In this document: positions 6,302-61,942 of the stretch, piece after piece
Layout of the letters: every line of letters begins with the position of its first letter
Numbering within the stretch: position 1 is the stretch's first letter
NCBI GenBank assembly: GCA_012690745.1
Contig: GCA_012690745.1_4086.2
Length of the DNA: 64,000 bases
DNA from: a phage
Strand: one strand, 5' to 3'
Made by a program: the position numbers and the translations under genes
The notes under the pieces: generated by a model
Database searches by the model: none
Seen by the model: the letters and a program-made list of their open reading frames with translations, nothing else
Told to the model about the DNA's origin: nothing

Positions 6302-6434
6302 CAGTACTGAATCATTTAATAGACGGATCTCGGCACCCTGTGGGTTAGTGACTGTATCGTCTTTATGTAGTAATTATGCCAGTACTGGATGCAGTTGTCA
6401 ACAATTATTTTTCAAATACTTTTTATTAAAATAC

Positions 6435-10582: not shown

Positions 10583-10587
10583 AAAAG

Positions 10588-10674
10588 TGGTTGACTTCGG
10601 TCAGCCATTTTGCTATTATATATTCATTGAGAGATAGCTCACTAGCCCACAGGGTGCAGGAGTGTATCTATTGT
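10588..10674 (+). promoter_or_regulatory. Repeated intergenic module copy 1: terminator-like hairpin with embedded TTGACT-N17-TATTAT promoter, then cccacagggtgc element
   Basis: Hairpin tggttgac-ttcg-gtcagcca + TTTT (10588-10611); -35 10591-10596, -10 10614-10619; element 10644-10674. Confidence 0.55.
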
Positions 10675-10802: not shown

Positions 10803-11144
10803 ATGACTATTGCAATTGCTCAATCTAACTTTGAAAACGAAATCATCGCTCAGGCACTGCGTTTAAATGATGGTCGGGCCGAAATCAATTACGGTTTCAA
10901 TAGTGGTGGATGTGAAAAATATCAGTACTTTGTAACGGCTGATGGCTGTGTCCTGGGTATCAATACAGTTATTGTAAACATTCAGAAAATTAATTTCAAT
11001 GATCCAGACGATAGCCAGTTTTACATCACGGGCGTAGACGTGAACTATGAGGATGACTCACTAACTGATGATCACACTGGCGAGAAGTTAGAAAGTGCAT
11101 ACGGTGAAGATGATTATCAGTCCGGTCCAGAAGATTTCGAATAA
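10803..11144 (+). CDS. hypothetical acidic protein
   Basis: Track ORF; RBS AAGGAA. Confidence 0.6.
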   Translation: MTIAIAQSNFENEIIAQALRLNDGRAEINYGFNSGGCEKYQYFVTADGCVLGINTVIVNIQKINFNDPDDSQFYITGVDVNYEDDSLTDDHTGEKLESAYGEDDYQSGPEDFE

Positions 11145-11158
11145 TATTAAAAAATAGT

Positions 11159-11186
11159 TTGACAATAGTTTTTAGTACTGTATAAT
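11159..11186 (+). promoter_or_regulatory. sigma70-like promoter with 5' hairpin
   Basis: -35 TTGACA 11159-11164, -10 TATAAT 11181-11186. Confidence 0.75.
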
Positions 11187-11239
11187 AGTTTACATCAAGG
11201 GGAGAATAGTTCTCCCCACTAACAGAGAGAGAAAACAAA

Positions 11240-11452
11240 ATGGCTAATATCCGCACTGTACTGAAAAATGCAAAACAAGTTTTATTTTCTGATCATGAAA
11301 ATTTCAACAAGGATATCACTGGCGTTCGGAATATCAAAGATGTAAAAAATGTTATGGGTATCTATTGCAATATGAAACGTGTTGGCACGTTCGGCGATAA
11401 AGTACTATACCAGGCAGGGGATTACAATTTTACACTGACTATCATTAACTAA
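11240..11452 (+). CDS. hypothetical protein
   Basis: Track ORF; RBS GAGAGAGA. Confidence 0.55.
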   Translation: MANIRTVLKNAKQVLFSDHENFNKDITGVRNIKDVKNVMGIYCNMKRVGTFGDKVLYQAGDYNFTLTIIN

Positions 11453-11471
11453 AAATATTATCACAGTACTA

Positions 11472-11500
11472 TTGACAACGTTTGATAGTACTGGCATAAT
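11472..11500 (+). promoter_or_regulatory. sigma70-like promoter (TTGACA-N17-CATAAT class)
   Basis: -35 TTGACA 11472-11477, -10 CATAAT 11495-11500. Confidence 0.65.
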
Positions 11501-11543
11501 AACTTTTATCAAGACAACGCATATTAATTTAAGGAATACTAAA

Positions 11544-11723
11544 ATGGCTATTATCGCAAAAACTGAAATCATCGGCCTGGATTCTATCATCATGACGTTT
11601 GAAGATCAAAAAGGGATGTATGTAGTTTCCTATGGTGATTATGTTCGGGAGTATGAAACAGTAGACGAAGCCTTTGAAAGTTACATTCGCCAGGTTAATA
11701 AAGCATACGACGATTACCGCTAA
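11544..11723 (+). CDS. hypothetical protein
   Basis: Trimmed from track 11472 (TTG of the -35) to ATG 11544 with RBS AAGGAA. Confidence 0.5.
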   Translation: MAIIAKTEIIGLDSIIMTFEDQKGMYVVSYGDYVREYETVDEAFESYIRQVNKAYDDYR

Positions 11724-11750
11724 AATATATTACCAGTACTATTAAATCTA

Positions 11751-11778
11751 TTGACAATGTTTGATAGTACTGTATAAT
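11751..11778 (+). promoter_or_regulatory. sigma70-like promoter
   Basis: -35 TTGACA 11751-11756, -10 TATAAT 11773-11778. Confidence 0.7.
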
Positions 11779-11822
11779 AACTTTTATCAACAGTAGTTAA
11801 CTTAACCTAAGAGAGAAAAATC

Positions 11823-12071: not shown

Positions 12072-12269
12072 ATGATTAGCATGAAATCAGTACAAAAACA
12101 AATAGAAACATTATCAAAAATTAAACGTAAACAGTACTCCTTAGAATATACAATCAATGGTAACTATCATCTAATGAAAGAAAATAATTTTATAGTCATT
12201 GATGAATCATTGCAGATCATTAGTATAGTACTGAAAGCATTAATCAATGACAGAAAAAAGTTAAAATAA
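12072..12269 (+). CDS. hypothetical protein
   Basis: Track ORF; no strong RBS. Confidence 0.4.
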   Translation: MISMKSVQKQIETLSKIKRKQYSLEYTINGNYHLMKENNFIVIDESLQIISIVLKALINDRKKLK

Positions 12270-12273
12270 TCTA

Positions 12274-12360
12274 TTGACAAATTATGCCAGTACTGGCATA
12301 ATACTTACATCAAGACGAGAACGTCACTAACCCATAGGGTGCACAAATGTAACTATATAA
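12274..12360 (+). promoter_or_regulatory. Promoter (TTGACA-N17-CATAAT) followed by cccatagggtgc element (module variant)
   Basis: -35 12274-12279, -10 12297-12302; element 12327-12360. Confidence 0.55.
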
Positions 12361-12440
12361 TATCGATCAATAAATGATCAAAAAAGTACTGGATCAATTT
12401 AGCATAAGGCGTATAATTCTGATCAAATCTTGATCAAAGG
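12355..12440. repeat. GATC cluster: five GATCAA repeats within ~80 bp in a 250-bp ORF-free region
   Basis: cgatcaataaatgatcaaaaaagtactggatcaa ... ctgatcaaatcttgatcaaagg. Confidence 0.6.
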
Positions 12441-12598
12441 CAATAAACGTAGTTGAAATTATATAGAAAGTACAAAGGCGTTACCATTCGTGGTAATGCT
12501 GGGGAATATGTAGTATCATACGGTTTGAATAAAATCAGTACTAGTAGTATTATTGTAGCATTACAGTACTATAGTATTTTTATAATGAGGTTAAAATA

Positions 12599-12856
12599 AT
12601 GGCTGTTGGATTCGCGAAGGACGGGGCCGAGCAAGACGAGATTAACGCAGTGATTCAGGCCGCTGTAAACCACGCTAGAACGCAAATTAACGCACAAATA
12701 GAATCACTGATACATTGCCTCGACTGCGGCGATAAAATCCCTGAGAATCGCCGCCTGGCCGTTAAGGGGTGTAAGTACTGCATCACTTGCCAGGCTGATC
12801 ATGATAGCATATTCAAACGCAATCCCCGTAATTGTTGGCATAGATCTATGAGATAA
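12599..12856 (+). CDS. DksA/TraR-family C4-type zinc-finger protein
   Basis: CLDCG-DKIPENRRLAVKG-CKYCITCQ matches the four-Cys TraR/DksA finger; RBS GAGG. Confidence 0.7.
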   Translation: MAVGFAKDGAEQDEINAVIQAAVNHARTQINAQIESLIHCLDCGDKIPENRRLAVKGCKYCITCQADHDSIFKRNPRNCWHRSMR

Positions 12857-12862
12857 AAAGTA

Positions 12863-12890
12863 TTGACAGTGCTGTTAGTTAGTGTATAAT
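12863..12890 (+). promoter_or_regulatory. sigma70-like promoter
   Basis: -35 TTGACA 12863-12868, -10 TATAAT 12885-12890. Confidence 0.75.
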
Positions 12891-12919
12891 ATTTTATATC
12901 TTAACTGAGGATTGAAATC

Positions 12920-14614: not shown

Positions 14615-14628
14615 AAAGATTTAAAAAA

Positions 14629-14713
14629 GGGATTGACTCCGGTCAGTCCCTTTGCTATTATATATGCATAGAAACAATCTAACCCACAGGGTGCATAAAT
14701 GTATCTATTATAT
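14629..14713 (+). promoter_or_regulatory. Repeated intergenic module copy 2
   Basis: Hairpin gggattgac-tccg-gtcagtccc + TTTG; -35 TTGACT 14633-14638, -10 TATTAT 14656-14661; element 14679-14713. Confidence 0.55.
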
Positions 14714-60890: not shown

Positions 60891-61412
60891 ATGTCGAAGA
60901 AGGATGCTTCGAAAAAACATTCAGTACATTTCAGTACTGGAAAAGATAACTGGACAACTCCCAAAGATTTCTTTGAAGATTTGGATGAGTTATGGGGATT
61001 TACACTTGATGCTGCTTGTGTTGATGAGACTGCATTGTGTGATAATTTTTTCACTCCAGAAGATGATTCACTATCACAGGATTGGGGAAATAATATAGTT
61101 TGGTTGAATCCACCATACAGTGACTTGAAAACTTGGTTATCTAAAGCAGTAGATGCATATAATAACGGGGCAACTGTAGTTATTCTTGTACCCTCAAGAA
61201 CCGACACAATTGCTTTTCAGGATTATGCTGCTAAAATATGTGATTGTATTTGTTTTATTAAGGGAAGATTACGATTTGGTATACCAGAAGAACCCGATAA
61301 GAAAACAGATTCAGCACCATTTCCTTCGTGTCTGATAGTACTGGATAAGTACTTAACCACTGCTAAAATCAATTATCTTAAATCTCTTGGATTGGTGATG
61401 AAGAATTTATGA
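60891..61412 (+). CDS. dam: DNA N6-adenine methyltransferase (phage Dam-type)
   Basis: WTTPKDFFEDLDELWGFTLDAAC followed by catalytic NPPY; overall phage Dam-like; RBS AAGGAA. Confidence 0.8.
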   Translation: MSKKDASKKHSVHFSTGKDNWTTPKDFFEDLDELWGFTLDAACVDETALCDNFFTPEDDSLSQDWGNNIVWLNPPYSDLKTWLSKAVDAYNNGATVVILVPSRTDTIAFQDYAAKICDCICFIKGRLRFGIPEEPDKKTDSAPFPSCLIVLDKYLTTAKINYLKSLGLVMKNL

Positions 61413-61942
61413 AAGAAACATGTGTATTAACGTTTGGTCGTATTAATCCTGTACATCGTGGACATGGTTTAGTTTTTGAAAAGGCCAAAACATTACAAGA
61501 ACAGTACAATGCTGATTTAAAAATATATCTAAGCACCAGTACTGACAATATAAAAAACCCACTCCCACCTGAACTAAAAATGTATTATACAGAGGGATTC
61601 TATCCTTCAGTGCAAGAGAACATCTACACAGAAGACAATCTATTTGATATAATGAGAGAACTGGATGGAAAGTACTTAGATGTTCTTTTCATTTGTGGTT
61701 CTGACCGTATTGATTCTTTTCAAAAAACTCTTGACATGTACAATGGTAAGTTGTATAATTTTTGTAGTATAAAAGCAATTCAGGCAGGTATTGACCGTAA
61801 TGTAAGTCAATATAGCTCAACACAAATGCGTAACTTCGCAAAAAATGAAGATTTTGATAGTTTTCGTGAGTTTTTACCTGGAAATGACGAGGACTTAAAA
61901 ATACAATTATTTGAAGACGTTATAAAATACATGAGGAAATAA
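61409..61942 (+). CDS. cytidylyltransferase-superfamily nucleotidyltransferase, NMN adenylyltransferase-like
   Basis: N-terminal TFGRINPVHRGH (HxGH nucleotidyltransferase motif) and SSTQMR (ISSTxxR-like); ATGA overlap with dam. Confidence 0.6.
   Translation: MKETCVLTFGRINPVHRGHGLVFEKAKTLQEQYNADLKIYLSTSTDNIKNPLPPELKMYYTEGFYPSVQENIYTEDNLFDIMRELDGKYLDVLFICGSDRIDSFQKTLDMYNGKLYNFCSIKAIQAGIDRNVSQYSSTQMRNFAKNEDFDSFREFLPGNDEDLKIQLFEDVIKYMRK

Follow-up and report, generated by a model that had tools for sequence, protein, structure and literature searches.

We analysed a 64,000-nucleotide stretch of phage DNA (GenBank assembly GCA_012690745.1, contig GCA_012690745.1_4086.2; the whole stretch is referred to as the window), with a focus on a cluster of five GATC sites that lies in front of a gene for a DksA/TraR-like protein. 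The window belongs to a 121Q-like Asteriusvirus, a jumbo coliphage: the 3-kb region around the GATC cluster matches that genus, and positions 12200-12900 (701 bases) are 99.6% identical to positions 146533-147233 of phage 121Q. The whole genome of 121Q (348,532 bp), the closest relative, was used for genome-wide counts. In records with known genome ends, the locus lies about 11-12 kb inside a direct terminal repeat of about 21 kb. This repeat is annotated as repeat_region 1-21525 in vB_Ec-M-J and measures 20,993 bp in fEgEco12 (PMC13070987); the fEgEco12 counterpart of window positions 12200-12900 is 11080-11780. The surrounding DNA is a typical early region, with dozens of small plus-strand open reading frames (ORFs), each with a near-consensus sigma-70 promoter 28-56 nt 5' of its start codon. 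The features of the locus, and the methyltransferase gene discussed with it, are as follows (aa, amino acids).

12260-12270, plus strand: left copy of an 11-bp direct repeat, GTTAAAATAAT, comprising the end of gp292 and its stop codon; the right copy lies at 12590-12600.
12271-12600, plus strand: 330-bp accessory cassette, holding the promoter P_E, a leader, the GATC palindromes, the predicted promoter P2 and a probable 48-aa gene.
12274-12302, plus strand: strong early promoter P_E, sigma-70 type, TTGACA-17-CATAAT with an upstream TG (11/12 matches); predicted start at about 12309.
12309-12355, plus strand: leader, 98% identical between the 121Q type and the PBECO4 type; its 5' part is CACTAACCCAYAGGGTGC.
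12356-12361, plus strand: first TATAAT, 3 nt 5' of site A, with no recognisable -35 element.
12365-12379, no strand: site A, exact palindrome GATCA-ATAAA-TGATC (first and second GATC), kept in all cassette variants seen.
12390-12417, plus strand: predicted internal promoter P2, TGGATC-16-TATAAT, with the -10 element at 12412-12417; predicted start at about 12424.
12392-12397, plus strand: lone GATCAA (third GATC), a half-site remnant of site B, overlapping the -35 hexamer of P2; in PBECO4-type phages site B is the full palindrome GATCAATACTTGATC.
12421-12435, no strand: site C, exact palindrome GATCA-AATCT-TGATC (fourth and fifth GATC), in 121Q-type cassettes only.
12453-12599, plus strand: 48-aa ORF, gp293 of 121Q (phrog_38664), with a TTG start (GTG in PBECO4) and a stop codon that overlaps the ATG of the DksA-like gene.
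12599-12856, plus strand: DksA/TraR-type C4 zinc-finger gene (PF01258, E = 2e-11), the next gene in the same transcription unit.
60891-61412, plus strand: N6-adenine DNA methyltransferase of the PF05869 'Dam' family (E = 7e-32), 100% identical to 121Q gp417.

An earlier note on this DNA had drawn attention to five clustered GATCAA hexamers in an intergenic region. The five sites were confirmed at 12365, 12376, 12392, 12421 and 12432; their start-to-start spacings are 11, 16, 29 and 11 bp, and all five read GATCAA on the plus strand (span 12365-12437), out of 26 GATCAA in the window. The note had made its proposal hinge on a GATC density above the background, and such a density was found. The cluster is the densest GATC group in the window, where the runner-up five-site span covers 206 bp, and also in the whole of 121Q (five in 71 bp). 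The probability of five sites in a 67-bp start-to-start span was 0.002 for the window and 0.004 genome-wide for 121Q, and it was 0.009 when the local background, which is richer in GATC with 86 sites in 22 kb, was taken as the reference. The ORF-free stretch around the cluster, which had been put at 250 bp, had to be corrected to 183 bp (12270-12452). The gap between the stop codon of the upstream gene (12269) and the ATG of the DksA/TraR-like gene (12599) is 329 bp and holds the 48-aa TTG-start ORF.

GATC as such is under-represented, with 141 sites in the window against 206 +/- 13 expected, and depleted in 121Q (620 observed against about 1090-1180 expected). The depletion is regional: the observed-to-expected ratio (O/E) is 1.15 in window 1-22000, the early region of the terminal repeat (GC 37.9%), and 0.45 in window 22001-64000 (GC 32.3%). 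In 121Q, GATC reaches 49 per 10 kb in the 140-150 kb bin, compared with about 18 on average.

The palindromes of sites A and C are rare sequences. The window contains two exact GATCA-N5-TGATC sequences where 0.14 are expected, and two copies were reached in none of 100 dinucleotide-preserving shuffles; the whole of 121Q contains three against about 0.4 expected. TATAAT stands 3 nt 5' of each palindrome at the locus, which gives a 27-nt direct repeat of the form TATAAT-N3-GATCAA-N5-GATCAAA whose two copies (12356-12382 and 12412-12438) are 74% identical. The third exact copy (121Q 215908-215922) is located between a terminator and gene 467, immediately next to TATATAAG; the conserved CTAAATACC, which resembles a late promoter, is also found 3' of it. 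All three exact copies in 121Q are intergenic, and each touches a -10-like hexamer. The half-sites of the gene-467 site are intact in phAPEC6, PBECO4 and fEgEco12, and three different centres are found (AAAAA, TATTT and AAAAT). In Turkey5 and JNE01 the site has degenerated, and it is absent from UE-S1 and A4, where another gene replaces gene 467. One-mismatch palindromes were considered as extra sites and rejected: their number equals chance and is uninformative, that at 121Q 204978 belongs to a terminator hairpin, that at 121Q 189214 (window 56121) spans a ribosome-binding site and a start codon, and two more are intragenic.

We compared half-sites and centres in six variants of four sites, orthologous and paralogous. 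No change was found at 60 half-site positions, whereas 15 of 30 centre positions had changed (Fisher, 3e-9). The inner flank alone, namely the A of GATCA and the T of TGATC, showed 0/12 changes (P = 0.003). The centres are A/T-rich, with G/C at 2/30 positions (P = 0.002), and full sites always have the form GATCA-N5-TGATC, i.e. a fixed GATC spacing of 11 bp. The half-sites with their inner flank remained unchanged while the centre varied; thus, as judged by this comparison, the constrained unit is larger than the bare GATC, namely a 15-bp palindrome with fixed inner flanks and a variable, A/T-rich centre. The proposal that clustered GATC is the element therefore stood in part: the cluster exceeds the background, but the unit is the 15-bp palindrome, whose flanks Dam and SeqA alone do not require.

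The position of the second palindrome differs between cassette types. The exact palindromes of 121Q-type cassettes lie at offsets 0 and 56. In the PBECO4 type, four GATCs (offsets 0, 11, 16 and 27) make up two exact palindromes, at 0 and 16. The second PBECO4 palindrome overlaps the -35 element of P2, and no GATC is present 3' of the -10 element there. Both main types thus hold two palindromes, the second always on the core of P2 and at different places. All GATC tetramers are conserved across cassette variants, and the mosaic breakpoints between cassette types fall inside the GATC cluster. The retention of two sites at shifted places is what one would expect if binding sites turn over under selection. 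A search of IMG/VR for more cassette variants returned 121Q itself only, and a metagenome scan added one variant. A linked loss of sites in one lineage was considered and rejected: in Turkey5 site C is broken and the gene-467 site degenerate, and JNE01 shares that degenerate gene-467 site but has intact sites A and C.

Phages of the 121Q and PBECO4 types carry the cassette, whereas the sibling phages phAPEC6 and G17 lack it. In the latter two the deletion junction falls exactly at the 11-bp repeat, and the stop codon of the upstream gene overlaps the ATG of the DksA-like gene. By this genome comparison the cassette is dispensable, i.e. accessory. P_E lies 150 nt 5' of the gp293 start, an unusual distance compared with that of the other consensus early promoters (28-56 nt). 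The 5' part of its leader, CACTAACCCAYAGGGTGC, recurs after two other P_E copies on the minus strand (6400->6260 and 4312->4240), and the loop of an ACCC/GGGU hairpin varies among the leader copies (AUA, ACA, ACC). The P_E copy at 6400 (minus strand) is followed after about 105 nt, with no ORF, by a rho-independent terminator (GGGGAGTTATTATCTCCCC and then a T-run), and its predicted transcript is a candidate early small RNA.

The predicted P2 has its -10 element ending 35 nt 5' of the gp293 start, the usual distance in the early region. The segment GTATAATTCT (12411-12420), which contains this -10 region, is 100% conserved between the 121Q and PBECO4 types, whereas its flanks are just 35-62% identical. 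The PBECO4 counterpart of P2 is TTGATC-16-TATAAT (10/12 matches). Relative to the predicted P2 start at about 12424, site A is centred at about -52, the GATCAA at 12392 lies in the -35 element, and site C extends from about -3 to +12. The palindromes thus abut or overlap -10-like and -35-like hexamers of predicted promoters. Differences between the window and PBECO4 in gp293 are distributed over the codon positions as 10/7/20, and the 48-aa ORF is probably a real gene. The cluster had been described as lying upstream of the DksA-like gene. It does lie in a promoter region, but one tied to the predicted P2 of the 48-aa ORF in a dispensable cassette. Two further candidates were rejected here. 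A GATC cluster is not a general feature 5' of DksA-like genes, which in the distant relatives 7t3, Munch and EJP2 lie directly behind another gene; and a 19-aa micro-ORF (12373-12432) runs into a stop after two codons in PBECO4-type cassettes and is therefore not coding. The locus contains no Rfam match of note and no tRNA.

Our preferred reading, which we hold tentatively and short of calling it probable, is that the palindromes are operators for a dimeric DNA-binding protein, of phage or host origin, that would control P2 and might be sensitive to methylation. Two 5-bp half-sites one helical turn apart are the usual target geometry of a protein dimer. Site A lies about 50 bp 5' of the predicted P2, site C would cover its start, and the second copy in PBECO4 would cover the -35 element. 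Occupied sites would keep RNA polymerase from using P2 and hinder read-through from P_E, and the 48-aa gene and the DksA-like gene would be switched off or timed in this way. Each half-site contains a Dam target; sensitivity to methylation is therefore conceivable, and binding may differ between the fully methylated injected DNA and hemimethylated replicated DNA. A contribution of methylation is possible, being neither necessary nor sufficient for the sequence pattern.

Several observations weigh against this operator reading. P2 is a prediction; its -35 element has 3/6 matches here, and the promoter scan did not list it. No DNA-binding Pfam domain was found in the 61 early-region ORFs or in gene 467, the rest of the genome and the host being outside this search. 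The copies may share descent, through a local duplication or, for site A and the gene-467 site, in view of their identity at 18/19 positions; this makes the copy counts less independent. Among the variants, a metagenomic one has a single full palindrome (the first) plus a half-site, site C is broken in Turkey5 (TTGTTC), and phAPEC6 and G17 have lost the whole cassette, so that any function must be accessory. Finally, the same sequence meets the requirements of both SeqA and Fis, and sequence alone therefore cannot name the reader of the sites.

The most serious alternative, possible although we consider it unlikely, is a switch that needs SeqA and Dam alone, in which host SeqA dimers on hemimethylated GATC pairs would occlude P2 and the read-through from P_E until remethylation by host or phage Dam. 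SeqA in vivo prefers GATCs close to 10 or 20 bp apart and less than about 50 bp apart, and the cluster spacings of 11, 16, 29 and 11 bp fit this preference (PMC2912659). The third GATC lies in the -35 element of P2 and the fourth at its predicted start, and every GATC tetramer is kept across cassette variants. Over most of the genome GATC is scarce (O/E 0.45-0.55), which makes a retained cluster conspicuous; the local early region, however, shows no depletion (O/E 1.15). The main difficulty is that SeqA and Dam need GATC only, whereas the inner flank is fixed in 12/12 half-sites (P = 0.003). Freely varying flanks, as such a switch would allow, were not found. The strict 11-bp spacing within the palindromes and the A/T-rich centre (2/30 G/C, P = 0.002) are likewise left unexplained. 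The earlier suggestion of methylation-dependent control or SeqA binding is thus borne out in the promoter location and the SeqA-type 11-bp spacing, but not in the flanks.

A Dam-family methyltransferase encoded in the window also speaks for such a switch. The enzyme, noted earlier as Dam-type, is a genuine member of PF05869; the Dam enzymes of Stx phages and T1-like phages share about 32% identity with it. PF05869 holds both GATC-specific adenine methyltransferases and adenine methyltransferases of relaxed specificity; GATC specificity therefore cannot be inferred at about 32% identity, and this part of the argument for SeqA and Dam is weakened accordingly. Host Escherichia coli Dam would methylate the five GATCs regardless of the phage enzyme. 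Fast remethylation by a phage Dam would, moreover, shorten the hemimethylated period on which SeqA depends. In the restriction digests published for fEgEco12, only ClaI and NruI were informative for GATC methylation, and no anomalies were reported (PMC13070987). The gene that follows the methyltransferase (61409-61942) is labelled 'NrdB ribonucleotide reductase A' in 121Q, a label that looks doubtful: its only Pfam matches are weak ones to cytidylyltransferase-like and FAD-synthetase families (E about 0.005).

A more far-reaching form of this idea, which we regard as speculative, treats the paired-GATC palindromes as a replication-coupled epigenetic switch of a lytic jumbo phage. On injected, fully methylated DNA the sites would be free and the accessory early operon, with its 48-aa protein and DksA-like factor, would be expressed; after replication, a dimeric reader (SeqA or a phage protein) would bind the hemimethylated sites and turn the operon off. 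The phage Dam-family enzyme would then set the timing, and the avoidance of GATC elsewhere in the genome might be the other side of the same coin.

The host protein Fis is an improbable reader of the sites, although the match to its rules is close. If each palindrome were a high-affinity Fis core, Fis would bend the DNA at P2 and couple the cassette to the growth state of the host. Hancock et al. (2016, PMC4784862) describe such sites as 15-bp cores that begin with G (-7) and end with C (+7), carry pyrimidine-purine steps at +/-(3-4), are A/T-rich in the middle, where the minor groove is narrow, and avoid T at +4 and G at -8. Both palindromes comply, with G at -7, C at +7, CA and TG steps, G at +4 and no G at -8; the centre ATAAA is A/T at 5/5 positions and AATCT at 4/5. 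Site C also carries the Fis-preferred T at -8 and A at +8, but site A has C instead of T at -8, and two centres contain a C, which lowers Fis affinity. GATCA matches the Fis consensus GGTTA (GGTTA...TAACC) at -7, -5 and -3 (PMC2018646). The degenerate gene-467 site of Turkey5 and JNE01, GTACAAAAATTGTCA, has lost both GATCs and kept the G at -7 and both pyrimidine-purine steps. Fis, however, is tolerant at +/-6, +/-5 and +/-4, whereas 8/8 independent half-sites are exactly GATCA, which is stricter than Fis needs. Fis-like cores (G..YA-W5-TR..C) are also not enriched: 121Q contains 16 against about 35 in shuffles, and site A is the only one in the early region.

Slightly less credible again is the view that the palindromes have no function of their own: a short A/T-rich segment would have been duplicated locally in a mobile cassette that recombines fast, with the GATCs as passengers. 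Duplication is suggested by the 27-nt direct repeat, the cassette is dispensable, mosaic breakpoints fall inside the cluster, and site C is broken in Turkey5. Against a mere by-product, the half-sites are unchanged while half of the centre positions diverged, and the second palindrome arose elsewhere in PBECO4-type phages. The third exact copy lies in an unrelated promoter region and is kept across phages with three different centres, and two exact copies occurred in 0/100 shuffles.

An RNA element in the P_E transcript is very improbable. The palindromes would form hairpins (GAUCA...UGAUC), and 12353-12364 would pair with 12455-12466 and hide the gp293 start. The predicted fold of 12309-12470, which includes a site C hairpin and this long-range helix, has a z-score of -2.1; this is modest, and 7 of 200 shuffles fold equally well. 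PBECO4-type cassettes contain neither site C nor the long-range helix, each hairpin is limited to 5-6 pairs, and no Rfam family matches.

The least credible explanation is a replication origin whose unwinding element carries GATC, like oriC or P1 oriR, or else a P1-pac-like packaging site: the likeness does not go beyond the motif (A/T-rich DNA with clustered (T)GATCA hexamers, 3' of a strong promoter), and the origin reading raised earlier fails on the lack of DnaA or IHF boxes in 12100-12800 and on the natural deletions in phAPEC6 and G17, which show the element to be non-essential, while the locus lies about 11 kb inside the terminal repeat of about 21 kb, away from the genome end, and its A/T content is unexceptional for this intergenic DNA. 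The consensus sequences of FNR (TTGAT-N4-ATCAA), Fur and CsrA sites were compared by eye, and none fits; IHF (WATCAA-N4-TTR) gave no fit by eye, and a pattern scan was negative as well.

Some further features of the window and of 121Q were recorded. The palindrome AGTACT is very strongly over-represented, with 255 copies in the window (e.g. 12227, 12289 and 12385) and 903 in 121Q against 118 expected (7.6-fold); in a structural-gene segment, 91 copies compare with 15 in shuffles. All three reading frames contain it (64/43/63), and intergenic DNA is enriched in it, with 85 of the 255 copies in 14% of the window. It is also present in promoter spacers (CCAGTACTGG in P_E) and terminator loops, with the preferred context CAGTACTG. 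A literature search gave no explanation of the excess. In 121Q, CCATGG, CAGCTG, AGGCCT and AGCGCT each occur 0 times against about 31 expected, and CCCGGG, CCGCGG and others are also missing, which suggests strong avoidance of restriction sites.

Within the early region, terminator-like hairpins at 10584-10619 and 14626-14661 hold a -35 element (TTGACT) in the stem, followed by TATTAT; they unite terminator and promoter in one element and so resemble the promoter-early stem-loop (PeSL) arrangement of T4-type phages; similar promoters lie at 17936, 20195 and 21717. One of the 61 early ORFs spread over 120-22793 matches the ParE-like toxin domain PF24732 (E = 3e-10), and others match DUF7249 and DUF7247. 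Between 21745 and 29500, a long series of ORFs of very similar size, about 65-75 aa (121Q genes of about 210-230 bp), stands back to back, each stop codon overlapping the next start codon; these ORFs may form a tandem array of paralogues.

Almost nothing is known about the timing of early genes in Rak2/121Q-like jumbo phages, which have hundreds of small early genes, and our literature search found no paper linking 121Q, jumbo phages and GATC. If the palindromes are operators as we propose, a 15-bp site with three copies per genome would provide a handle for fishing out the regulator, and the promoter could be tested in dam, seqA and fis hosts. Methylation-dependent binding would make the locus an example of Dam-coupled timing in a virulent phage; otherwise, it would be an ordinary operator in an accessory cassette.

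Compared with known systems, the element resembles the SeqA-bound GATC clusters at dnaA P2 and oriC of E. coli, where GATCs lie about one helical turn apart over a promoter in a Dam+ host (PMC2912659). It differs from them in its exact 15-bp palindromes, conserved inner flanks and only five sites in a lytic jumbo phage. GATCs in a promoter are also found with OxyR at agn43, Mu mom and opvAB (PMC4856963) and with Fur at the sci1 T6SS (PMC3145626). In the OxyR and Fur systems the GATCs lie inside the binding site of the regulator, and methylation and binding compete (PMC4856963, PMC3145626). Here, the palindromes match no OxyR or Fur consensus, and heritable phase variation would be of no obvious use to a lytic phage. 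The element may work like a Dam-overlapping operator or like the SeqA-controlled dnaA promoter, but it can be assigned to neither: no cognate protein was found among the 61 early ORFs and gene 467, and the flanks, which would vary freely in a pure SeqA/Dam cluster, are fixed. With Fis sites it shares the 15-bp core bounded by G and C, the pyrimidine-purine steps and the A/T-rich centre (PMC4784862), but its half-sites are fixed at positions that Fis reads loosely, and Fis-like cores are not enriched in the phage.

Operators of the lambda and 434 Cro/CI type are short palindromes with conserved half-sites and a variable centre, present in several copies over the -35, -10 and +1 positions. The palindromes described here are alike in their conserved half-sites, variable centre and multiple copies over predicted promoter elements; unlike those operators, they come with no cognate helix-turn-helix protein among the 61 early ORFs and gene 467, and there are three copies per 350-kb genome. 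The pac site of P1, reportedly described by Sternberg and Coulby in 1990, is said to consist of seven TGATCA/G hexamers whose methylation controls cleavage by terminase. Like the present cluster, it gathers (T)GATCA hexamers into two groups in phage DNA, but the five sites described here form palindromic pairs, lie away from a packaging end and are missing from sibling phages. As for the setting, T4-type phages reportedly carry PeSL mobile regulatory cassettes, an account attributed to Arbiol et al. in 2010. The cassette context is similar, with an early promoter and a small gene as a movable module, short repeats and a hyperplastic early region; unlike PeSL, the present cassette is bounded by an 11-bp direct repeat and carries a long leader and putative operators instead of a stem-loop.

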